Notes under the pieces: model-generated
The model's input: only the letters and a program-made list of their open reading frames with translations
Told to the model about the DNA's origin: nothing
The model's database searches: none
Part shown: positions 950 through 18,501 of the stretch, piece by piece
Layout of the letters: every line of letters begins with the position of its first letter
Position numbering within the stretch: the stretch's first letter is position 1
Source: Candidatus Methylomirabilis limnetica
Lineage (GTDB): Bacteria; Methylomirabilota; Methylomirabilia; Methylomirabilales; Methylomirabilaceae
Assembly: GCF_003044035.1 (NCBI RefSeq)
Contig: NZ_NVQC01000003.1
Location: 1-21,209, forward strand
Direction: 5' to 3'
Length of the DNA stretch: 21,209 bases
Program-made: the position numbers and the translations under genes

Positions 950-1726
950 ATGGCACAGTATAAGACTGAAGCGGTATCGGGTAAAAGTGCCGAGTCAGTA
1001 GAGAAGATGTTCGGCTGGGGTACCTGGTGGAAATGCATGATACCTATCAGCATCTTCTACGTCATGATTCGGATCTACCAGCAGTACTTCTCGTGGTCGA
1101 AAGGCCTCGACTTCTTTTCTGAGGACTTTCGGGTCTATTGGTGGAACATGCTCATCGGTGAGTTGATCATCGAGGCGGCGGTACTGACCTTCACCTTGGG
1201 CTACATCTGGAAGACCCGCGACCGGAATCTGGATCGAATCACGCCGGAGGAGGAACTCAGGCGGTTCTGGGGTCTCGGAATGTGGATCGCGACGTACGCC
1301 TGGGCCGTCTATTGGGGTGCCAGCTTCTTTACCGAGCAGGACGGGACGTGGCACCAGACGGTGATCCGCGATACGGACTTTACGCCGAGCCACATCATCG
1401 AGTTCTATCTCAGCTACCCGATCTACATCATTATCGGGATTAACTCCTACATGTGGGCCAGGACCCGTATCCCCATGTTTTCCAAGGGGCACTCCCTGCC
1501 CTTCATGCTGACGGTCGGCGGTCCTGCGATGATCTTTGTGAATGTGGCGCTGAACGAGTGGGGCCACACCTTCTGGATCATGGAGGAGTTGTTTGTGGCA
1601 CCGCTCCATTGGGGCTTTGTCACGCTCGGCTGGTGCCTTTTTGGGGTATATGGCATAGCGCTGACAATTACTCCGCGGGTCTTTGAGTTGATCAAGATCT
1701 GCAGCGGTAACAAGTCTACTGCGTGA
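950..1726 (+). CDS. pmoC: particulate methane monooxygenase subunit C
   Basis: 258 aa. SD AAGGAGG at 934-940, ATG at 950. Polytopic membrane protein with the PmoC/AmoC hallmark stretches RDTDFTPSHIIEFYLSYP and NEWGHTFWIMEE. It is the first gene of a C-A-B ordered cluster. Confidence 0.95.
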   Translation: MAQYKTEAVSGKSAESVEKMFGWGTWWKCMIPISIFYVMIRIYQQYFSWSKGLDFFSEDFRVYWWNMLIGELIIEAAVLTFTLGYIWKTRDRNLDRITPEEELRRFWGLGMWIATYAWAVYWGASFFTEQDGTWHQTVIRDTDFTPSHIIEFYLSYPIYIIIGINSYMWARTRIPMFSKGHSLPFMLTVGGPAMIFVNVALNEWGHTFWIMEELFVAPLHWGFVTLGWCLFGVYGIALTITPRVFELIKICSGNKSTA

Positions 1727-1783
1727 CGAAACTCGGTAAGGATCGTTTGTTGAGGATCCTCGAAGTCCACAAGTCCAAATAGT

Positions 1784-1812
1784 GGAGGGGGGTGGCGTTC
1801 TTGCCCCCCTCC
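1784..1812 (+). promoter_or_regulatory. GC-rich stem-loop in the pmoC-pmoA intergenic spacer (possible attenuator, processing or stability element)
   Basis: GGAGGGGGG (1784-1792) pairs with CCCCCCTCC (1804-1812) around an 11-nt loop, followed only by a weak CTTT. It sits 24 nt upstream of the pmoA ATG. Confidence 0.4.
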
Positions 1813-1835
1813 CTTTGAGAGAGAGGAAGAGCTAT

Positions 1836-2567
1836 ATGGCGCTCTTGACACAACAGCAAGCCCTGAGCCTGGAGCGGAAATTCGATATTATCGTAATAAT
1901 TGCTGCGTTCACGGGCACGGTCGCGGGGTATCATATTCACCAGATGCTGACCGTCGGCGACTGGGACTTTTGGCTGGACTGGAAGGATCGGCGTTGGTGG
2001 GTCACGTTGACGCCGATCCTGTTGATCACCTTTCCCGCGGCAACGCAATATTTCATGTGGGAGAAGATGCGTCTTCCGATCGGCGCCACATTTTGCGTGA
2101 TGACGCTTCACTTCGGGCAATGGATGAATCGGGTCTTTAACTTCTACATGTGGGCCTGGTTCCCGGTTAACTTTGTCACTCCGAGTCTTATGATACCCAG
2201 CGCGATCTTTCTGGACGTGACGCTGATGATGACAGGAAGCTACATGTTCACGGCGTTGTTCGGCGGTATGGGGTGGTCCCTGTTATTCTATCCGGCGAAC
2301 TGGACTTGGCTCGCCCCGTTTCACTTGGCAGTGAAGCATCCAAGCGGGCCGCTCATGTCGATTGCCGATCTGATGGGGATGGAGTATGTTAGGTCTGCCA
2401 CGCCTGAATACATCAGGATCATTGAGCGTGGGACGCTACGGACATTCGGAAGGGATGTCACGCCAGTCTCCTCTTTCTTCGCTGGGTTCATCAGCGGGAT
2501 AGTATACCTCTGGTGGGTTTGGATGGGGAAGGTGATCAGCAGGCCGGTATTCCTCTCGCGTACGTAG
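1836..2567 (+). CDS. pmoA: particulate methane monooxygenase subunit A
   Basis: The ORF-track start at 1782 lies inside the intergenic hairpin. The ATG at 1836 follows GAGAGGAAG (1821-1829) and gives 243 aa. The protein contains GDWDFWLDWKDRRWWVTLTPI, the signature PmoA/AmoA stretch. Confidence 0.95.
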   Translation: MALLTQQQALSLERKFDIIVIIAAFTGTVAGYHIHQMLTVGDWDFWLDWKDRRWWVTLTPILLITFPAATQYFMWEKMRLPIGATFCVMTLHFGQWMNRVFNFYMWAWFPVNFVTPSLMIPSAIFLDVTLMMTGSYMFTALFGGMGWSLLFYPANWTWLAPFHLAVKHPSGPLMSIADLMGMEYVRSATPEYIRIIERGTLRTFGRDVTPVSSFFAGFISGIVYLWWVWMGKVISRPVFLSRT

Positions 2568-2687
2568 CTGTTATTGATGCTGGCCCGTGGTGGGTTCTCG
2601 AAGCAAGCCTGCAAGGCAAGAGAAGACTCCACGTGGCGCTGCAATGCGAATGAATTGACTCTTACCCACGAACCTGGGAGGATAACA

Positions 2688-3956
2688 ATGAGGATCGGAC
2701 GAGCGGCGTTGTCGGCGATCGTGCTTGGAGCGATCGCCGTGTCCGCGGGAACGGTATGGGCCCATGGCGAGCGGTCGCAGGAGCCGTTTCTGCGGATGCG
2801 CACGATAACGTTTTACGATACTGAGTGGTCGAAATCGAAGGTGAAGCCCGGCGAGACGATGGATCTGACGGGGAAATTCCATACGTTCAGTGAATGGCCG
2901 CAGGCCGTCAATACCCCAGAGTCGATCTTTCTCCACTTCTCGGTACCAGGGCCATCAATGCTTAAGAAAGAGGCGTGGATGAATGGCATGCCCGTCATCA
3001 ACGCTACCAGTACGATTCTTGGCGGAGACTATGATTATAGAATGGTCCTTATGGGGCGGGTCACCGGGACTTATCATGTTCACCCGATGGTAAATATTGC
3101 GGGTGGAGGGCCCCTGGTCGGTGGAGGCCAATTTGTCACTGTCGATGGCGATTGGACTGGCTTTCAAAATAACGTCGCGACCATCGATGGCTCGACAGTG
3201 AACATGGAAAACCACGGGCTGGGAAGGATCATCGGCTGGTGGGGTTTTTGGGTCGTCATAGGTCTGTTCTGGCTGTTGTATTGGATAAAGAGACCATTTT
3301 TGCGGCGTGTCTTCCAGGTTGGGGTTGTGCCTGAGGAGCAGCTTGTGAGCTCAGGCGATAAAACGGTGGCGGTCGTTCTCATGGTCGCGACAGTCCTCAT
3401 CGTGTCCATTGGCTACGTCACGACCAACAGCGCCTATCCCATCACGATTCCGCTGCAGGCCGGTAGGATGGATACTCCTGAACTAGCGCCCACCACGGCG
3501 TTTACGCCGTACGCCCATGCCACCATAAAGGCTAGGCCGATAACCGCGATCTATACAGTGCCTGGGCGTTCTCTTGGGATGCTGGTAGAGATCAAGAACG
3601 GTTCGAACAGGCCTCAGCAGTTGGGGGGATTCATCACGGCCAACCTGCAGTTCAGGGAGCCCAGCATGTTCCCAGACTCGCGGCTCAAGGTCAAGGTGGA
3701 GCCTAACGGCCCCATCGCTCCTGGCCAGACAGTACAGCTAACGATTGATGCTACTGACGCGGAATGGGAGTACCAGAGGTTGGCCGAGTTGATCTATGAC
3801 TCAGATAGCCGGTACGGCGGACTCCTTGAGTTCTTTGATGCAGACAAGAACCGGCAAATTGTCGAGGTCGGCGGTCCTGTGATCCCGTCCTTTGAGGGCG
3901 GTGCCACTGCCATGACAGGCGGCGGCAAATGGCGACCAACTACGCAGTACAAATAA
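2688..3956 (+). CDS. pmoB: particulate methane monooxygenase subunit B
   Basis: The ORF-track start at 2574 has no SD. The ATG at 2688 follows GGGAGGA (2676-2682) and gives 422 aa. Signal peptide MRIGRAALSAIVLGAIAVSAGTVWA, mature N-terminus HGERSQEPFLRMRT (the N-terminal His of the PmoB copper site), and an HxH in GTYHVHPMVN. Two central TM helices are followed by a soluble C-terminal domain. Confidence 0.93.
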   Translation: MRIGRAALSAIVLGAIAVSAGTVWAHGERSQEPFLRMRTITFYDTEWSKSKVKPGETMDLTGKFHTFSEWPQAVNTPESIFLHFSVPGPSMLKKEAWMNGMPVINATSTILGGDYDYRMVLMGRVTGTYHVHPMVNIAGGGPLVGGGQFVTVDGDWTGFQNNVATIDGSTVNMENHGLGRIIGWWGFWVVIGLFWLLYWIKRPFLRRVFQVGVVPEEQLVSSGDKTVAVVLMVATVLIVSIGYVTTNSAYPITIPLQAGRMDTPELAPTTAFTPYAHATIKARPITAIYTVPGRSLGMLVEIKNGSNRPQQLGGFITANLQFREPSMFPDSRLKVKVEPNGPIAPGQTVQLTIDATDAEWEYQRLAELIYDSDSRYGGLLEFFDADKNRQIVEVGGPVIPSFEGGATAMTGGGKWRPTTQYK

Positions 3957-4062: not shown

Positions 4063-4127
4063 GTGAGGGTCCCATCCTTTGAGATTCCAGATTCGGGATT
4101 TCAACGGGTGGGACCCTCACCCTTTTC
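4063..4127 (+). terminator. candidate intrinsic terminator of the pmoCAB transcription unit
   Basis: GTGAGGGTCCCA (4063-4074) pairs perfectly with TGGGACCCTCAC (4109-4120), extendable by about 3 bp, followed by CCTTTTC. The loop is large (28-34 nt), which lowers confidence. Confidence 0.5.
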
Positions 4128-7624: not shown

Positions 7625-7767
7625 CCCAAGAACAGTGATAGAAAAATTGTCATTGCGAACGAAGTGAAGCAATCTCGCCTTATTGCACTGAGATTGCCAC
7701 GCACCCTACGGGTACTCGCAATGACGGGAAGAATCGAGCGGTTGCGAAGTCTATCGCTGTTCCTGGG
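7625..7767. repeat. palindromic MITE/REP-like element, copy A (143 nt)
   Basis: Near-identical to 15211-15352. Terminal inverted repeats are CCCAAGAACAG(T/C)GATAG and CTA(T/G)CGCTGTTC(C/T)TGGG. Nested internal inverted repeats are GTCATTGCGA/TCGCAATGAC and GCAATCTC/GAGATTGC. Confidence 0.8.
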
Positions 7768-11142: not shown

Positions 11143-12030
11143 ATGGCGCACCCAGGCACCGGATCGAAACGGTTGGCGCGGACCCGGCGGACGGATCGTC
11201 GGCAGGAGACCGGAGTTCGTGCAGGTGATGCGGTCACCCCCCGTGTCGACGAGGAAGGCGAGCATCGGTCTGTCGTTGATAAAAAAGCCTCGCAAGACGA
11301 GCCAGGAGGCACACAGCCTGCGGAATCACTGAGGGCTGCCTTCAGGCTTTTCGAGGAGACGGCCGATGGGGTATTTATCAGTTCACCGTCGGGTGAGATT
11401 CTGTTCTGCAACCGGGCCGCTGAAACCATCCTGGAAGCTTCCGCGCAACAAGTCGTCGGGCAGGAGTGCCGCGAATTCTTCAACGGCCGTGACGCTAACG
11501 GTAATCAGCTCTGTCAGTGGCCTTGCCCCCTCAAGATGTCGTTGAACCGCGGAGACCTGATCCAGCATTTTGAGATGGCTACTCGGACGAGGACGGGCAA
11601 ACCGCTGTGGATCGATGTGAGCTGTGTTGCCCTTCCCTGTGACGACAACCAGCCTCCGACGGTCGCCCACCTCTTCCGTGATGTCACTGCGGCACACCAG
11701 CTTGAGGTTCTCGTTCGCCAACAACTGGCTCAGACTCAACTCGCGACGAGCGAGGATGTTCTGCCCCCCATCGTTGAACTGACTCGGCGGGAACTGCAGG
11801 TCGTCACCCTGATGCGGACTGGCGCAACCACGGCGGCCATCGCGGAGCAGCTTTTCATCAGTAAAACTACGGTGAGAAACCACATCCAGAACATCTTCAG
11901 CAAGCTCAAGGTTCATTCTCGGCTGGAGGTCGTGGCCTACGTGAATGAGATTACGCGGCGAGAGCCCACGACTCGCGAAAAGGCTGGACCGGCGCCGGGA
12001 GCCACGAAGGAACCCCCCAAGGCAGCGTGA
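11143..12030 (+). CDS. PAS-domain / LuxR-type (GerE) HTH one-component transcriptional regulator
   Basis: 295 aa. The PAS-like core runs from FEETADGVFISSPSGEILFCNRAAETIL to LFRDVTAAHQLE. The C-terminal LuxR HTH is LTRRELQVVTLMRTGATTAAIAEQLFISKTTVRNHIQNIFSKLKVHSRLE. The start codon is uncertain because the N-terminal ~55 aa are low-complexity and basic. Confidence 0.85.
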   Translation: MAHPGTGSKRLARTRRTDRRQETGVRAGDAVTPRVDEEGEHRSVVDKKASQDEPGGTQPAESLRAAFRLFEETADGVFISSPSGEILFCNRAAETILEASAQQVVGQECREFFNGRDANGNQLCQWPCPLKMSLNRGDLIQHFEMATRTRTGKPLWIDVSCVALPCDDNQPPTVAHLFRDVTAAHQLEVLVRQQLAQTQLATSEDVLPPIVELTRRELQVVTLMRTGATTAAIAEQLFISKTTVRNHIQNIFSKLKVHSRLEVVAYVNEITRREPTTREKAGPAPGATKEPPKAA

Positions 12031-12074
12031 TAGCCGTGATCAAATTGATTAAGTCAACCGCTGAAGCTGCGGAC

Positions 12075-12180
12075 CCGGGGAAGGTAAAATCGTTTAGTGT
12101 GATGAATATGCATCACAAGATTGAGTTAATTGCATGATTTATGGGTCCAACTGGAAAAGCGTATATACGAGATTGTATTG
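12075..12180 (+). repeat. nod promoter/operator module, distal copy (a)
   Basis: About 105 nt, directly repeated at 12217-12320 with a period of about 142 nt. Contains the palindrome TGTGATGAATATGCATCACA (12098-12117) and a weaker promoter-like ATTTAT-N19-TATATA. Confidence 0.65.
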
Positions 12181-12216
12181 GCGTGATCGACTGGGTTGAC
12201 CGTTGGAGCTGTAGCC

Positions 12217-12320
12217 TCGGGGGAGGTAGAATCGTTTAGCGTGATGAATATGCATCGCAATATTGAGTCAATTGCATTATTTACAAGTCCCATAGGGCTA
12301 GTATATTAAGGTATTGTGGG
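12217..12320 (+). promoter_or_regulatory. nod promoter/operator module, proximal copy (b), with a candidate sigma-70 promoter for the first nod gene
   Basis: Operator GATGAA-TA-TGCATC (12243-12256). -35 TTTACA (12280-12285), a 16-nt spacer, and -10 TATATT (12302-12307). The predicted start near 12314 implies a leader of about 230 nt. Confidence 0.45.
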
Positions 12321-12545
12321 ATCGGAACTTAAGCGTCGCAAGTTGATTTGATTACAGGCGTTACACGGGCTACCGGGGGTCGCAGCATCGCCACAGAGGC
12401 GATCTTCCCCATGAACCTTACGATAACGAAGGGAGGTGAGTCGGCAAGCAGAGAATAAGTAGCGCAACGGGGCACCGACTGGATGGATCGCAACGACAAC
12501 AGGAGAGTGGCCACCTACGTTATAGGGAGAGCCACAGGAGGAAAC

Positions 12546-14978
12546 ATGAGTCCTAATCCTAACGAAGCTGTCAGCAAGGCGAAGATGCACAGGACCTTCG
12601 CACAGGCCCTATTAATTAAGAAGTATTGGTGGCTTCATGCTTTGATCGTTACGGCAATCAGCGTCATCGGTCTCATTGCTCTCGGCGTCTGGACCTACGC
12701 GGGCGCTCCCCCGCTGGTGAATTTTGTGTCGTCCACTACTGGGGAGGTTGTAATCCCGGAGTGGGAAATGAATCGTGGGAAGCAAGTGTTTTTCCTGAAG
12801 GGCCTGATGACGTATGGCTCCTTCTGGGGGGACGGAGCCGAGCGCGGACCTGATTTCACCGCTGAGGCCCTCCACCGCACGTCCCTCTCTATGGGCACGC
12901 ACTATAGAAATGAGATCGCGAAGACACGGGCTGTGACCCAAGACGACGAGGACATGATCAAGACGAGGGTGGCACGAGAGATCCATACGAACCTGTATGA
13001 CTCGGCGGCTGGCGTCATTCGTCTTAACGATGCCCAGATTTTTGCGTATCATGAGTTGAACACTCACTACACCCGGATGTTTACGGATCGAACCTACGTA
13101 GAAGCATTCCAGAATGGCAGAATTGAGAGCTACATCAAAAACCCAGCAGACATCAAGGCCTTGACGGGCTTCTTCTTCTGGGGCGGCTGGGTTTCCGGGG
13201 CGAATCGACCGGGTGAGGTCTACAGCTACACCCACAACTGGCCATACGATCCAGCGGTGGGTAACTTCCCGACGTACGCGACGTATATCTGGAGCTTCCT
13301 TTCGATCTTCGTGCTGTTCCTTGGCACCATGCTCGTCCTGTACGTTTACGGGGAAATGAAGACCCTGCCAGGCGAGCCGTTCAATGGGCGGGATTGGTCG
13401 CTGACCACGGTTGACCTTGAAAACAAGGGCGACGCCTATGTTCGTCCCACCCAGCGTGCGACGTATAAGTTCTTTGCTTTTGCCGTGATCCTGTTCCTGG
13501 TCCAGATCCTGGCAGGTATCATCAGCGCAGAAGATTTCATTGGTGGTGGGCCGGTTGATGCGATGTTGGGCATGGTTGGGCTCACCATCCCCTTTAGCGT
13601 TGCCAGAGGCTGGCATCTTATCGTCCAGATCTACTGGTTCTTTATGGCCTGGGTTGGCTACACCATCTTCTTCCTGCCCAGGATTTCGAAGGTCCCGAAC
13701 GGACAGAGGTTCCTGATCAACCTGCTCTTTACCCTGTGTGTTATCGTCGGGGCAGGCGCTCTGTTTGGTATCTATCTCGGACATACGGGCTTTTTTGCCA
13801 ATGACGAGATGGCCTACTGGTTCGGGAGTCAGGGTTGGGAGTTCCTGGAGCTCGGGCGATTCTGGCATGTTCTCATGCTGATCTCGTTCTGTCTCTGGGT
13901 CTTCATCATCTTCCGCGCCGTGAAGCCGTGGCTCACGAGCCAGAATATGTGGTCCGTACCGGCTTGGCTGTTCTACGGCAGCGCGATCATGGTGCTGTTC
14001 CTGTTCTTCGGGATGTTTATGACCCCTCAGCAGAACTTCGCCATCTCCGACTATTGGCGGTGGATGAACATCCACATGTGGGTTGAGGTAACCTTCGAAG
14101 TCTTCACCACCTGTATCGTTGGGTACATGCTGGTGCAGATGGGTCTGGTGAACCGGGCCATGGCCGAGCGGGTGATCTTCCTGGCGGTCATGATGTTCCT
14201 CGTCACCGCCCTGATCGGTATCTCTCACAACTTCTACTGGATCGCCAAGCCAACAGGGATCATTGCACTGGGCAGCGTCTTCTCCACCATGCAGGTGTTG
14301 CCTCTGCTCTTGATCACCCTGGATGCCTGGAAGATGCGGACGGAGCGGGTCAAGGCCCATGAGGCTGTTGCCGAGGGCAAGCAGCGCTTCGTGATGGACG
14401 GCGTTTGGACGTTCATCCTTGCCGTCAACTTCTGGAACATCTTCGGCGCAGGCGTGATGGGCTCAATGATCAACCTGCCCATCATCAACTACTATGAGCA
14501 TGGCACCTACGTCACCAGCAACCATGCCCATGGCGCCATGTTCGGCGTCAAAGGCAACATCGCAATTGGCGGTATGCTGTTTGCCTGCCAGCACCTGTTC
14601 CAGCGCTCTGCCTGGAATGAGAAGCTGATCAAGACCGTGTTCTGGTCGCTGCAGATCGGCTTGGTAATGATGATGATGATGGATATGTTCCCAGTCGGTC
14701 TGTATCAGGTTGCGGCCATCATCCAGCACGGCTTCTGGTATGGTCGGCAGCAGTCGTTCATTACGAATGAAGTGTGGCACACCCTGACCTTGCTGCGCGC
14801 GATCGGTGGGGCGGTATTCCTCTTCGGAGGCGTCTTGCCGCTTACGTGGTTCATTCTGTCCAGGGGGACCCGGATGGTCCGCGAGGCCGCCACAGTTGAG
14901 GAAGGCGAGTGGACAATCTACGATAAGGAGAAGGCGAAGGAGCGGGAAGCTTGGGCCGCTTCTGACGAAGCTTTCTAG
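12546..14978 (+). CDS. nod: qNor-family haem-copper oxidase with substituted catalytic and quinol sites; putative nitric oxide dismutase, copy 1
   Basis: ATG at 12546 after AGGAGGA (12536-12542); the ORF-track start at 12483 has no SD. 810 aa. N-terminal TM helix plus a periplasmic domain without CXXCH, carrying YGSFWGDGAERGPDFTAEALH, followed by the NorB core. NIHMWVEVTFE and NHAHGAMFG are retained. GISHNFYW replaces GHH(Y/F)(Y/F)W, and FSTMQVLPL replaces FSxLE.xP. Confidence 0.88.
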   Translation: MSPNPNEAVSKAKMHRTFAQALLIKKYWWLHALIVTAISVIGLIALGVWTYAGAPPLVNFVSSTTGEVVIPEWEMNRGKQVFFLKGLMTYGSFWGDGAERGPDFTAEALHRTSLSMGTHYRNEIAKTRAVTQDDEDMIKTRVAREIHTNLYDSAAGVIRLNDAQIFAYHELNTHYTRMFTDRTYVEAFQNGRIESYIKNPADIKALTGFFFWGGWVSGANRPGEVYSYTHNWPYDPAVGNFPTYATYIWSFLSIFVLFLGTMLVLYVYGEMKTLPGEPFNGRDWSLTTVDLENKGDAYVRPTQRATYKFFAFAVILFLVQILAGIISAEDFIGGGPVDAMLGMVGLTIPFSVARGWHLIVQIYWFFMAWVGYTIFFLPRISKVPNGQRFLINLLFTLCVIVGAGALFGIYLGHTGFFANDEMAYWFGSQGWEFLELGRFWHVLMLISFCLWVFIIFRAVKPWLTSQNMWSVPAWLFYGSAIMVLFLFFGMFMTPQQNFAISDYWRWMNIHMWVEVTFEVFTTCIVGYMLVQMGLVNRAMAERVIFLAVMMFLVTALIGISHNFYWIAKPTGIIALGSVFSTMQVLPLLLITLDAWKMRTERVKAHEAVAEGKQRFVMDGVWTFILAVNFWNIFGAGVMGSMINLPIINYYEHGTYVTSNHAHGAMFGVKGNIAIGGMLFACQHLFQRSAWNEKLIKTVFWSLQIGLVMMMMMDMFPVGLYQVAAIIQHGFWYGRQQSFITNEVWHTLTLLRAIGGAVFLFGGVLPLTWFILSRGTRMVREAATVEEGEWTIYDKEKAKEREAWAASDEAF

Positions 14979-15013
14979 TCTGAGGATCTAGGTAGGTAAG
15001 TCACACTGCACTT

Positions 15014-15063
15014 CGATACCCCCCAGTACAGCAGAAATGCTGTGCTGGGGGGTATCGCTTTTC
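15014..15063 (+). terminator. strong intrinsic terminator of nod copy 1
   Basis: 20-bp stem, CGATACCCCCCAGTACAGCA with TGCTGTGCTGGGGGGTATCG (one G-U pair), a GAAA tetraloop, then CTTTTC. An identical copy lies at 18372-18421. Confidence 0.85.
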
Positions 15064-15210
15064 TGGCAGGTAGTTGCGCGTGCGAGGTGATGGCTTCGTT
15101 CCGAAAGGCGCTGGACAGACCACCAACGCGACCGTTTTTACCCCTTCCAGTCTCCGCCTCCACTCCCACATTCCGCCCACCCGGGCTACACTCCCCTCCA
15201 GCTCCACCCA

Positions 15211-15352
15211 CCCAAGAACAGCGATAGAAAATTGTCATTGCGAATGAAGTGAAGCAATCTCGCATTGTTGTACTGAGATTGCCGCGCACCCTGCGGGTAC
15301 TCGCAATGACGCAAGGAATCGCGTGGTTGCTAGGTCTAGCGCTGTTCTTGGG
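15211..15352. repeat. palindromic MITE/REP-like element, copy B (142 nt)
   Basis: Same element as 7625-7767, in the same orientation. Terminal inverted repeats CCCAAGAACAGCG and CGCTGTTCTTGGG are perfect over 13 nt. It lies in the spacer between the two nod units. Confidence 0.8.
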
Positions 15353-15576
15353 ATCCATCTGACGCTTGACACTAGGGGCCAGGCTTCTACTGCCTCAAAG
15401 CATAACGCCGACTCTCTGCTCTCGCTCAGCGATAGCGGCTCATTTCGGGGTGTTTATAGGTTACCAGAGTGGATGCACGGCTACTCCTCTACTGGTAGAC
15501 CTTTGACCCTTGTGTGACATCGAGGGGCTCACTCAGCAAGCGGGCGCTGAGGCCGTTCACTGACCAGAATCCGAGA

Positions 15577-15665
15577 GAGTGATGCATTTGCATCGTAAAT
15601 TATGTCAATCACCTCATTTACAGGCTGTACTGAGGGTCATAAATTGCCATTGAGAGGTGTTGGGG
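15577..15665 (+). promoter_or_regulatory. nod promoter/operator module, copy (c), with a candidate sigma-70 promoter for the second nod gene
   Basis: Operator GATGCA-TT-TGCATC (15580-15593), a perfect 6-2-6 inverted repeat. -35 TTTACA (15617-15622), a 17-nt spacer, and -10 TAAATT (15640-15645). The sequence is collinear with module b. The leader is about 245 nt. Confidence 0.45.
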
Positions 15666-15897
15666 TGATTATTGAGGAGGTCTTCACCATGAACTTCACG
15701 GTAGGGGTCGACACGAAGAGCAAGCAGGGCGTCGGGTCACCGGCTGGCCGACCAGGCGTGTGCCGTCGAGCTTGCGCCCTGCAGGCTGATCGCGAAGCCC
15801 GGGCGCCCCCGACGGCCGGGGCAACAACAGACGCGGGATCGCAATAACATTGAGAGTGGCCACCTAAGTTATAGGGAGGGCCATGGAGGGGTGTAAG

Positions 15898-18336
15898 ATG
15901 AGTCCTCATCCTAGTACACCTGTCAGCAAGGCGAAGGTCTACAGGACCTTCGCGCAAGCCCTATTAATTAAGAAATATTGGTGGCTTCATGCTTTGATCG
16001 TCGGCCTGATCAGCGTCGTCGGCCTCATCGCTCTCGGCGTCTGGACCTACGCGAGCGCTCCCCCGTTGGTAAATTTTGTGGCGGTATCCAATAGTGGAAC
16101 GGTGGTGATTCCAGAGTGGGAAATCCAGCGTGGGAAGCAAGTGTTTTTCCTGAAGGGCCTGATGACGTATGGCTCCTTCTGGGGAGACGGAGGGGAGCGC
16201 GGGCCGGATTACACCGCCGAAGCTCTGCATCATACTTCCGTGTCCATGAGAAAGTACTATTCGGCCGAGATCGTAAAGAGTCGTCCTCTGACCCAAGACG
16301 ACCTGGGTATGATCGATTCGCGGGTCAAGCGGGAGATTCATACGAATCTCTACGACGAGAAAGCCGGCGTTATTGCCCTTAACGATGCCCAGATTTTTGC
16401 GTACCAGGAGTTGATCACCCATTATACGCGGACGTTTACGGATGCCACCTATGAAGAAGCGTTTATGAAGGGAAGGATCGAAAATCATATCAGCAACCCA
16501 GCAGACCTCAAGGCACTAGCGTCGTTCTTCTTCTGGGGGGGCTGGGTTTCCGGGGCGAATCGACCGGGTGAGGACTATAGTTATACACACAACTGGCCAC
16601 CCGATCAGTCCGTCAACAACTACCCGACGTTCCCGACGTATCTCTGGAGCTTTATCTCGATCTTCGTGCTGTTCGCGGGTACCATGTTGGTCCTATACAT
16701 CTACGGGGAAATGAAGACCCTGCCTGGCGAGCCGTTCAATGGGCGGGATTGGTCGCTGACCACGGTTGACCTTGAAAACAAGGGTGACGCCTATGTTCGT
16801 CCCACCCAGCGTGCTACGTATAAGTTCTTTGCCTTTGCCGTGATCCTATTCCTGGTCCAGATCCTGGCAGGTATCCTGAGCGCAGAGGATTTCGTCGGTG
16901 GGGGACCGGGTAGCTTCCTGGCGACATCGGTATTGGGGTTTACTATCCCCTTCACCGTTACTCGAGGCTGGCATCTTATCGTCCAGATCTACTGGTTCTT
17001 TATGGCCTGGGTCGGCTACACCCTCTTCTTCCTGCCCAGGATTTCGAAGGTCCCGAACGGACAGCGGTTCCTGATCAACCTGCTCTTTACGCTATGTGTC
17101 ATCGTGGGCGCAGGCGCGCTGTTTGGCATCTATTTCGGACATACGGGGTGGTTTGCTAACGACGAGATGGCCTACTGGTTCGGGAGCCAGGGTTGGGAGT
17201 TCCTGGAGCTCGGGCGATTCTGGCATATTCTTATGCTGTCCTCGTTCTGTCTCTGGGTCTTCATCATCTTCCGCGCCGTGAGGCCGTGGCTCACGAGCCA
17301 GAATATGTGGTCCGTGCCGGCCTGGCTGTTCTATGGCAGCGGCATGATGGTGCTGTTCCTGTTCTTCGGGTTGTTCATGACCCCGACGCAGAACTTCGCC
17401 ATTGCGGACTACTGGCGGTGGATGAACATCCATATGTGGGTTGAGGTGACCTTCGAAGTGTTCACCACCTGTATCATTGGGTACATGCTGGTGCAGATGG
17501 GTCTGGTGAACCGGGCCATGGCCGAGCGGGTGATCTTCCTGGCGGTCATGATGTTCCTCGTCACCGCCCTGATCGGCATCTCTCACAACTTCTACTGGAT
17601 CGCCAAGCCAACAGGGATCATTGCACTGGGCAGCGTCTTCTCCACCATGCAGGTGTTGCCTCTGCTCTTGATCACCCTGGATGCCTGGAAGATGCGGACG
17701 GAGCGGATCAAGGCCCATGAGGCCGTTGCCGAGGGCAAGCAGCGCTTCGTGATGGACGGCGTCTGGACGTTCATCCTCGCTGTCAACTTCTGGAATATCT
17801 TCGGCGCGGGCATCATGGGCTCGATGATCAACCTGCCCATCGTCAACTACTATGAGCATGGTACCTACCTCACTGGTAGTCATGCGCATGCCGCCATGTT
17901 CGGCGTCAAAGGCAACATCGCGATTGCCGGTATGCTGTTTGCCTGCCAGCATCTGTTCCAGCGCTCTGCCTGGAATGAGAAGCTGATCAAAACCATATTT
18001 TGGTCGCTGCAGATCGGCTTGAGCCTGATGATAGGATTGGATCTGTTCCCGATCGGTCTGTACCAGGTAGCGACCGTCTTCAAGGAAGGCCTCTGGGCCG
18101 CACGAGCGCAGTCACACGTAACGGATAGCGTGTGGGTTACTTTGACGTGGCTGCGCACGATCGGTGGAGCGATCTTCCTCTTTGGAGGCGTATTGCCGCT
18201 AGCCTGGTTCATTCTGTCCAGGGGAACCCGGATGGTCCGCGAGGCCGCCACAGTTGAGGAAGGCGAGTGGACAATCTACGATAAGGAGAAGGCGAAGGAG
18301 CGGGAATCTTGGGCTGCTTCTGATGAGGCCTTCTAG
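15898..18336 (+). CDS. nod: qNor-family haem-copper oxidase with substituted catalytic and quinol sites; putative nitric oxide dismutase, copy 2
   Basis: ATG at 15898 after GGAGGGG (15885-15891). This start aligns with the MSP... start of copy 1; the alternative ATG at 15883 would add 5 aa. 812 aa. Same motif set as copy 1: NIHMWVEVTFE, GISHNFYW, FSTMQVLPL and SHAHAAMFG. Confidence 0.88.
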   Translation: MSPHPSTPVSKAKVYRTFAQALLIKKYWWLHALIVGLISVVGLIALGVWTYASAPPLVNFVAVSNSGTVVIPEWEIQRGKQVFFLKGLMTYGSFWGDGGERGPDYTAEALHHTSVSMRKYYSAEIVKSRPLTQDDLGMIDSRVKREIHTNLYDEKAGVIALNDAQIFAYQELITHYTRTFTDATYEEAFMKGRIENHISNPADLKALASFFFWGGWVSGANRPGEDYSYTHNWPPDQSVNNYPTFPTYLWSFISIFVLFAGTMLVLYIYGEMKTLPGEPFNGRDWSLTTVDLENKGDAYVRPTQRATYKFFAFAVILFLVQILAGILSAEDFVGGGPGSFLATSVLGFTIPFTVTRGWHLIVQIYWFFMAWVGYTLFFLPRISKVPNGQRFLINLLFTLCVIVGAGALFGIYFGHTGWFANDEMAYWFGSQGWEFLELGRFWHILMLSSFCLWVFIIFRAVRPWLTSQNMWSVPAWLFYGSGMMVLFLFFGLFMTPTQNFAIADYWRWMNIHMWVEVTFEVFTTCIIGYMLVQMGLVNRAMAERVIFLAVMMFLVTALIGISHNFYWIAKPTGIIALGSVFSTMQVLPLLLITLDAWKMRTERIKAHEAVAEGKQRFVMDGVWTFILAVNFWNIFGAGIMGSMINLPIVNYYEHGTYLTGSHAHAAMFGVKGNIAIAGMLFACQHLFQRSAWNEKLIKTIFWSLQIGLSLMIGLDLFPIGLYQVATVFKEGLWAARAQSHVTDSVWVTLTWLRTIGGAIFLFGGVLPLAWFILSRGTRMVREAATVEEGEWTIYDKEKAKERESWAASDEAF

Positions 18337-18371
18337 TCTGAGGATCTAGGTAGGTAAGTCACACTGCACTT

Positions 18372-18421
18372 CGATACCCCCCAGTACAGCAGAAATGCTG
18401 TGCTGGGGGGTATCGCTTTTC
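18372..18421 (+). terminator. strong intrinsic terminator of nod copy 2
   Basis: Same 20-bp stem, GAAA loop and T-tract as 15014-15063. Convergent with nadE, whose stop is at 18502. Confidence 0.85.
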
Positions 18422-18501
18422 GCGCAGGTAGTTTCGCGTGAGGTCTGGATTCGTTCCGAAATGTCTGCGGAAGCCTTAGGCGTGGCGACCAGACGACGGC
18501 G

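Follow-up and report, generated by a model that had tools for sequence, protein, structure and literature searches.

We analysed a stretch of 21,209 nucleotides from the genome of the lake methanotroph Candidatus Methylomirabilis limnetica (Methylomirabilota, formerly NC10; contig NZ_NVQC01000003.1 of assembly GCF_003044035.1, positions 1 to 21,209 of the forward strand), hereafter the window, in which two adjacent genes encode proteins related to quinol-dependent nitric oxide (NO) reductase (qNor). This gene pair is, practically beyond doubt, the known tandem pair of nod paralogues of this organism, which encode putative NO dismutases (Nod). A model that saw only the letters of the DNA (the sequence-only reading) had proposed the two genes as candidate NO dismutases; its proposal is a correct rediscovery of a pair that was already known, and no new member or variant of the family is involved. 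Taken as a whole, the explanation that the known nod pair derives from qNor and acts as a dismutase feeding the particulate methane monooxygenase (pMMO) is likely to be right.

The two proteins, of 810 and 812 amino acids, have the architecture of qNor. In both, Pfam searches identified a NorB_cytochrome_c-like domain (PF22085, residues 61-234, E 9e-46) followed by a COX1 domain (PF00115, residues 305-757, E 1e-49), and in each protein an N-terminal transmembrane helix precedes a cytochrome-c-like periplasmic domain that lacks haem, with a NorB core of 12 helices after it. Using HMMER, residues 37-770 of copy 1 aligned with residues 31-761 of the Geobacillus stearothermophilus (Gs) qNor (3AYF), the best-matching protein of solved structure, with an E-value of 1e-131, a full-length match that fixes the qNor fold, and the Neisseria meningitidis qNor (6FWF) was matched at E 5e-106. 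Neither copy contains a CxxCH motif, and the first cysteine is residue 398 in copy 1 and residue 400 in copy 2. Domain content, full-length alignment and cysteine positions all agree with the sequence-only reading, which had described two reading frames of these lengths with qNor architecture, no CXXCH and no cysteine in the first ~395 residues.

Individual residues were placed in a MAFFT alignment of the two qNor references, the two window proteins and 132 full-length close homologues, with the reference sequences rebuilt from the HMMER output and their lengths checked. The motif GISHNFYW, which begins at residue 558 of copy 1, puts an asparagine in the column of Gs H560, the second of two adjacent histidine ligands of the non-haem metal (FeB), and this column is Asn in 131 of the 132 homologues. 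The motif FSTMQVLPL, beginning at residue 579 of copy 1, puts a glutamine at the active-site glutamate Gs E581, as in all 132 homologues. At the quinol site, the helix with SAEDF (from residue 327 in copy 1 and 328 in copy 2) has H328 replaced by E329/E330 and E332 by G333/G334, and D746 is replaced by G755/G757; among the homologues the first column is never His and the second never Glu (0/132 each), and the third is Gly in 128. The His to Asn and Glu to Gln changes in both copies and the loss of the quinol site had all been claimed by the sequence-only reading, and they are borne out by both HMMER and MAFFT against the Gs qNor. Its motif register, named beforehand as a possible point of failure, is right against the Gs and N. 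meningitidis enzymes alike, and every motif, residue number and codon coordinate that it gave proved correct when the sequence was read again, so that its motif reading can be regarded as reliable.

Nod has kept from qNor the haem b/b3 ligands, two FeB histidines, E512/E516 and Glu429. In Gs numbering, H508 and H559 at the metal, E512, E516, H355 and H653 at haem b, H651 at haem b3, and Glu429, which is presumably a Ca2+-site ligand, are retained in all 132 homologues; the corresponding copy 1 residues, likewise invariant, are H510, H561, E514, E518, H357, H662 and H660. The first metal ligand and the glutamate lie in NIHMWVEVTFE, which begins at residue 508 (H510, E514), and two of the haem ligands in HAHGAMFG (from residue 660 in copy 1) or HAHAAMFG (from residue 662 in copy 2). 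The predicted non-haem metal site is altered from His3(+Glu) to His2-Asn(+Glu514). Because the register is confirmed and the pattern recurs in 131 or 132 of the 132 homologues, it represents a clade-wide trait and not chance. The homologues with the Asn/Gln signature include metagenome-assembled genomes (MAGs) labelled Acidobacteria, Gammaproteobacteria, Nitrospinae and others.

The two copies thus share with qNor (3AYF, 6FWF) the domain architecture and homology over the full length, and differ from it by five replacements (H560 to Asn, E581 to Gln, H328 to Glu, E332 to Gly and D746 to Gly), which remove the quinol site and change the metal site. The quinol His/Glu/Asp and the His3 FeB site with its catalytic Glu, by which qNor (EC 1.7.5.2) is recognised, are not found; the architecture, the Asn, the Gln, the loss of the quinol site, the kept haem and metal histidines and the phylogeny are those of NOD. 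Cytochrome c-type NO reductase (cNOR), compared by E-value and ranges only, is homologous in the core, with NorB of Pseudomonas aeruginosa (3O0R; 4XYD) matched at E ~1e-25 over residues 303-768. It has a separate haem-c subunit, NorC (CxxCH), whereas Nod carries its cytochrome-c-like domain as a fused part of the protein and without CxxCH, and no norC-like open reading frame adjoins the nod genes in the window. The active-site replacements are the same ones as given for qNor.

A further difference from qNor concerns a periplasmic loop (12816-12851, copy 1 residues 91-102; the motif YGSFWGDG begins at residue 90 in copy 1 and 91 in copy 2), which reads FWGDGAERGPD in Nod as against (V/L)LGHG(S/A)Y(M/Q)(G/A)PD in the two qNor references. 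Gs His90 is replaced by Asp in 132/132 homologues and Gs Tyr93, which we take to be a Ca2+-site ligand in qNor/cNOR, by Glu in 112/132. As judged from the alignment, this loop is the second place, and one outside the active site, where the clade as a whole departs from qNor.

The genes, the signature substitutions and the dismutase hypothesis for Candidatus Methylomirabilis oxyfera reportedly go back to Ettwig 2010 and Ettwig 2012 (2010-2012), and Murali 2022 is said to stand alongside Ettwig 2012 for the definition of the NOD family. The putative NOD of Ettwig 2012 (PMC3413370) has a qNor fold with 14 transmembrane helices and a hydrophilic domain without haem c; one histidine is replaced by Asn with all the others kept, the catalytic Glu is replaced by Gln, and the quinol residues His328 and Asp746 are lost. 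Every one of these defining substitutions is carried by the M. limnetica copies. A 2024 review (PMC11549561) gives as signature N564 together with the kept haem-ligand His and two of the three metal-site His, and names Ca. M. limnetica (Graf 2018) as one of the Methylomirabilota that carry nod. According to papers citing it, Graf et al. 2018 published the M. limnetica genome and its nod copies, and Zhu 2019 treated both copies as nod and placed them in a nod tree. The wider NOD family (Bacteroidota, Gammaproteobacteria HdN1 and other phyla; PMC11549561) has the Asn/Gln signature in common with the window proteins, to which its sequences are at most 76% identical, and falls outside the Methylomirabilis subclade.

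Within that subclade, the closest relatives of the two proteins are Methylomirabilis proteins with 82-87% identity, including CBE69496 and, in cluster P0023, CBE69502. Four genomes were compared in detail, those of M. limnetica, M. oxyfera (FP565575), the NC10 MAG PQAM01 (PQAM) and Methylomirabilis sp. JAQUOY01 (JAQU). Whole-protein identities are 86-87% between A types and between B types and 81-85% between A and B; copy 2 is 86-87% identical to B types, 81-84% to the A types of other genomes and 85% to the A copy of its own genome, with which it shares 86% identity in DNA. In a neighbour-joining tree (distance-based, no bootstrap, rooted with qNor as the outgroup), copy 1 grouped with cluster P0023, which holds DAMO_2437, and copy 2 with the DAMO_2434 group. 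The M. oxyfera pair DAMO_2437/DAMO_2434 shares with the M. limnetica pair its length class (810/808 amino acids), tandem order, flanking genes and signature residues, and the proteins, at 82-86% amino-acid identity, show species-level divergence only. In FP565575 the genes run FtsH, porin, PAS/LuxR, nod (810 amino acids), nod (808 amino acids) and, further on, NAD synthase (nadE), CN-hydrolase and methyltransferase. The window has the same order, which is found in full in one further Methylomirabilis genome; in the remaining one the porin and PAS/LuxR are separated by a TPR/SLT gene, and the position of FtsH falls outside the locus fetched. Substitutions, synteny, identity to the M. oxyfera proteins and tree position agree in supporting the membership in the Nod clade claimed by the sequence-only reading, for which a phylogeny had been proposed as a check.

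That the tandem pair arose in assembly, or that one copy is a decaying duplicate, is exceedingly improbable. Tracts of up to 230 nucleotides with one mismatch could in principle mislead an assembler. However, both nod open reading frames are intact, each protein shares more identity with its orthologues (86-87%) than with its paralogue (85%), and the same tandem pair stands behind the regulator in an independent ENA assembly and occurs in the three other Methylomirabilis genomes. The artefact and pseudogene readings were rejected on the strength of the intact frames, the independent assembly and the orthologue identities.

In the proposed mechanism, the haem b3/non-haem metal centre of Nod would bind two NO molecules and convert the pair to N2 and O2 by a rearrangement without net redox change, and the O2 would be passed to pMMO for the activation of methane in an intra-aerobic, nitrite-dependent pathway. 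Since Nod lacks a quinol site and its proton path is altered, it probably does not reduce NO to N2O, and, following Ettwig 2010 and 2012, we lean towards NO dismutation as its reaction in vivo. A complete pmoCAB operon ~8.6 kb upstream of the first nod gene on the same contig fits the intra-aerobic pathway. Published work on M. oxyfera found little N2O production and placed DAMO_2434/2437 among the transcripts and proteins of highest abundance.

Several points weigh against NO dismutation. Literature searches found no Nod that had been purified, heterologously expressed or solved by cryo-electron microscopy, in line with the caveat of the sequence-only reading that activity had not been demonstrated with purified protein; a PDB search returned only qNor and cNOR relatives and no Nod; and reviews including those of 2024 (PMC11549561) and July 2026 report Nod as uncharacterised ('as-yet uncharacterized' in the latter) and know of no activity of the pure enzyme, metal analysis or structure for any member. 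Furthermore, the haem b ligands that transfer electrons are strictly kept, as are E514/E518, although a redox-neutral enzyme has no obvious need of them. Nitrosopumilus maritimus and P. aeruginosa, which lack nod, also make O2 from NO (2024 review, PMC11549561), and Nod is therefore not the sole possible catalyst.

The same retained residues (H357, H662, H660, E514 and E518, invariant in 132/132 homologues) would suit the main rival to dismutation, in which Nod is an NO reductase forming N2O, or an NO detoxifier, that receives electrons through the low-spin haem b; instead of quinol, the donor would be, for instance, a cytochrome c of the periplasm that docks on the haem-free cytochrome-c-like domain. 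A possible donor is encoded in M. oxyfera (L001 12428-16080) and JAQUOY01, where a ~3.6-kb cassette between the B-type nod gene (nodB) and nadE codes for a 126-amino-acid cytochrome c, a 95-amino-acid open reading frame, a ~230-amino-acid multihaem protein, a Tll0287-like protein and a 183-amino-acid open reading frame, so that genes for a small cytochrome c and for a multihaem protein come directly after nodB. However, the cassette is missing from the M. limnetica window (18337-18501) and from PQAM01 and is thus not an obligate Nod partner, and the whole clade has substitutions at one FeB His and at the catalytic Glu. M. oxyfera makes little N2O despite abundant Nod, and it has a canonical qNor (DAMO_1889) as well. 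We consider NO reduction with a non-quinol donor unlikely.

A different NO-dependent reaction, yielding N2O and O2 or forming one step of a multi-enzyme route, so that N2 and O2 would not both come from this site, appears to us rather improbable. M. oxyfera is reported to lack nosZ, and N2O would then accumulate. Alternative stoichiometries of NO dismutation do exist in nature (2024 review, PMC11549561), and the reviews give no measured products for Nod; however, the M. oxyfera pathway yields N2 and O2, and the combination of N2O and O2 is attributed to N. maritimus (2024 review, PMC11549561). Dismutation of NO to N2 and O2 remains our preferred reading of the nod pair.

The paralogues do not diverge evenly along their length. 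We compared the nod pairs of the four genomes at four-fold degenerate sites by codon segment, and found an identity between the two copies of one genome of 69-76% in three genomes and 60% in the fourth. Over codons 501-600, own-genome copies are 93% (M. limnetica), 100% (M. oxyfera), 98% (PQAM) and 87% (JAQU) identical at these sites, as against means of 72-73% between orthologues of different species; over codons 101-200, own-genome copies reach 32-44%, orthologue means are 43-44%, and the copies look saturated. Nearest-neighbour bootstraps over codons 401-700 recovered the own-genome paralogue in 97-100% of replicates in three genomes and were equivocal in the fourth, whereas over codons 101-200 (periplasmic) and 701-800 (C-terminal helices) the orthologue was nearest. 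In M. limnetica alone the homogenised region takes in the first 100 codons as well (100% of replicates); this genome also has a 230-nucleotide tract with a single mismatch that spans the active-site codons, and the 3′ flanks of its two copies are near-identical. The converted tracts are wider in M. limnetica than in M. oxyfera, covering the 3′ flank and the 100 codons at the N-terminus in addition. Fisher tests on the four-fold sites of codons 401-700 gave p ~1e-4 for M. oxyfera and p ~1e-5 for PQAM but were not significant for M. limnetica and JAQU (p = 0.3), and the signal in M. limnetica accordingly rests on the bootstraps and the near-identical tracts.

This mosaic is well supported and points to patchy gene conversion between the tandem paralogues, which tends to make the catalytic core (codons ~401-700) uniform within a genome, strongly in three genomes and equivocally in the fourth. 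Gene conversion probably explains why both M. limnetica copies stand together in the amplicon-based tree of Zhu 2019, and it confounds nod trees that rest on the middle part of the gene. One may speculate that Nod is an obligate A/B heterodimer, or that A and B are isoforms each with a partner of its own, and that conversion keeps their active sites alike; we regard this as doubtful, and, if true, it would mean that the nod paralogues are not redundant copies.

Table 1 Features of the nod locus in the window (positions are those of the window)
Feature	Position	Strand	Remarks
pmoCAB	950..3956	+	Pfam AmoC, AMO, Monooxygenase_B, E 1e-96 to 1e-121
PAS + LuxR/GerE-type regulator	11143..12030	+	Pfam; directly upstream of nod copy 1
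Conserved 5′ leader of copy 1	12503..12545	+	GTGGCCACC-N-(A/G)GCCAC then GGAGG
nod copy 1, 'A type'	12546..14978	+	810 aa; PTL37251.1; orthologue of DAMO_2437 (CBE69502)
Copy 1 E329...G333	13530..13544	+	At qNor quinol ligands His328, Glu332
Copy 1 His357	13614-13616	+	Kept second haem b ligand
Copy 1 His510...Glu514	14073..14087	+	Kept first FeB ligand and Glu (Gs H508, E512); 132/132
Copy 1 His561-Asn562	14226..14231	+	CAC AAC; Asn replaces FeB His, Gs H560
Copy 1 Gln583	14292..14294	+	CAG; replaces active-site Glu, Gs E581
Copy 1 His660, His662	14523..14531	+	Kept haem b3 and haem b ligands; 132/132
Copy 1 Gly755	14808..14810	+	At qNor quinol ligand Asp746
Terminator-like hairpin 3′ of copy 1	15014..15057	+	20-bp stem, 12 G-C pairs, T-run
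Conserved 5′ leader of copy 2	15852-15897	+	Direct repeat of copy 1 leader, 94%
nod copy 2, 'B type'	15898..18336	+	812 aa; PTL37252.1; orthologue of DAMO_2434 (CBE69496)
Copy 2 E330...G334	16885..16899	+	At qNor quinol ligands His328, Glu332
Copy 2 His563-Asn564	17584..17589	+	CAC AAC; same His to Asn change
Copy 2 Gln585	17650..17652	+	CAG; same Glu to Gln change
Copy 2 Gly757	18166..18168	+	At qNor quinol ligand Asp746
Same hairpin 3′ of copy 2	18372..18415	+	Inverted repeat

Mechanically called open reading frames around the pair extend further upstream (12483-14978 and 15883-18336, both on the forward strand), and their longer translations had no exact match in the protein collection searched. 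The products from ATG 12546 and ATG 15898 match PTL37251.1/WP_107560883.1 and PTL37252.1/WP_107560884.1 exactly, a GGAGG Shine-Dalgarno sequence lies 5-8 nucleotides before the ATG in both copies, and the N-terminus MSP is found in seven of the eight nod genes of the four genomes, the exception being the M. oxyfera B copy (MRSSS). Given these exact matches, the GGAGG and the conserved N-terminus, we take the two ATGs to be the true starts.

The leader preceding the start (GTGGCCACC...GCCAC and GGAGG) recurs upstream of most of the eight nod genes, though only weakly so for the B copy of PQAM, and could fold into a short hairpin beside the Shine-Dalgarno sequence; Rfam and tRNA scans of the window were both empty, so that the leader corresponds to no known RNA family. 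The 3′ flank was duplicated together with the nod gene, and, as each gene is followed by its own T-run hairpin, the two copies are probably separate transcription units. A scan for sigma-70-like promoters found 6 sites in the window as against 4.6 +/- 1.8 in shuffled sequence, which is no excess.

A 105-nucleotide direct repeat (12044-12148 and 12186-12290; 79% identical, 142-nucleotide spacing) is located between the PAS/LuxR gene and the first nod gene, and its second copy ends within the highest-ranking sigma-70-like match (TTTACA-16-TATATT, 12280-12307). Each repeat copy contains the near-palindrome GATGAATATGCATC, and the repeats may represent duplicated binding sites for a regulator. Another repeat, of 125 nucleotides, occurs at 7643-7767 and, in the spacer between the two nod genes, at 15228-15352, with copies 88-89% identical. 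Inverted repeats mark its ends (GAACAGCG...CGCTGTTC) and a palindrome lies inside it (GTCATTGCGA...TCGCAATGAC); it folds well, at -52.5 kcal/mol (z = -3.3), and looks like a miniature inverted-repeat transposable element (MITE) or a repetitive extragenic palindromic (REP) element; it was not found in four other Methylomirabilis loci.

The PAS/LuxR regulator occupies the same position in all four Methylomirabilis loci examined. Around the methane monooxygenase genes, a 26-nucleotide inverted repeat at 4063-4120, ~100 nucleotides after pmoB, is probably a terminator, and ~470 nucleotides upstream of pmoC the forward strand encodes the C-terminal part of a sigma-54-type activator (58-474; AAA_lid_14 and Fis-type HTH_8), whose reading frame is cut by the left contig end.

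Database annotation does not reflect the identity of the pair. NCBI labels these proteins 'nitric-oxide reductase' or 'cbb3-type cytochrome c oxidase subunit I', names that hide a Nod, and some cluster members among the entries of close relatives are deposited as 'putative nitric oxide dismutase'. NCBIfam offered no fitting Nod or qNor model; its only hit, a cbb3 oxidase subfamily, scored 18-22 bits against a cut-off of 1080, so far below the threshold that no family call can be drawn from it. A near-identical tandem nod pair is also deposited in a MAG labelled 'Patescibacteria group bacterium' (HWQ70396/HWQ70397, 24-kb contig), and a nod gene in one labelled 'Verrucomicrobiae bacterium' (HWR21526); both labels are most likely binning errors. 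The gene is also contained in the Lake Zug runs SRR6003826 and SRR6003830.

The question of whether Nod forms N2 and O2 is already widely recognised and calls for biochemistry rather than more sequence. Its interest lies in Nod being a candidate for one of the very few light-independent biological routes to O2, and a candidate shortcut in denitrification that bypasses N2O.

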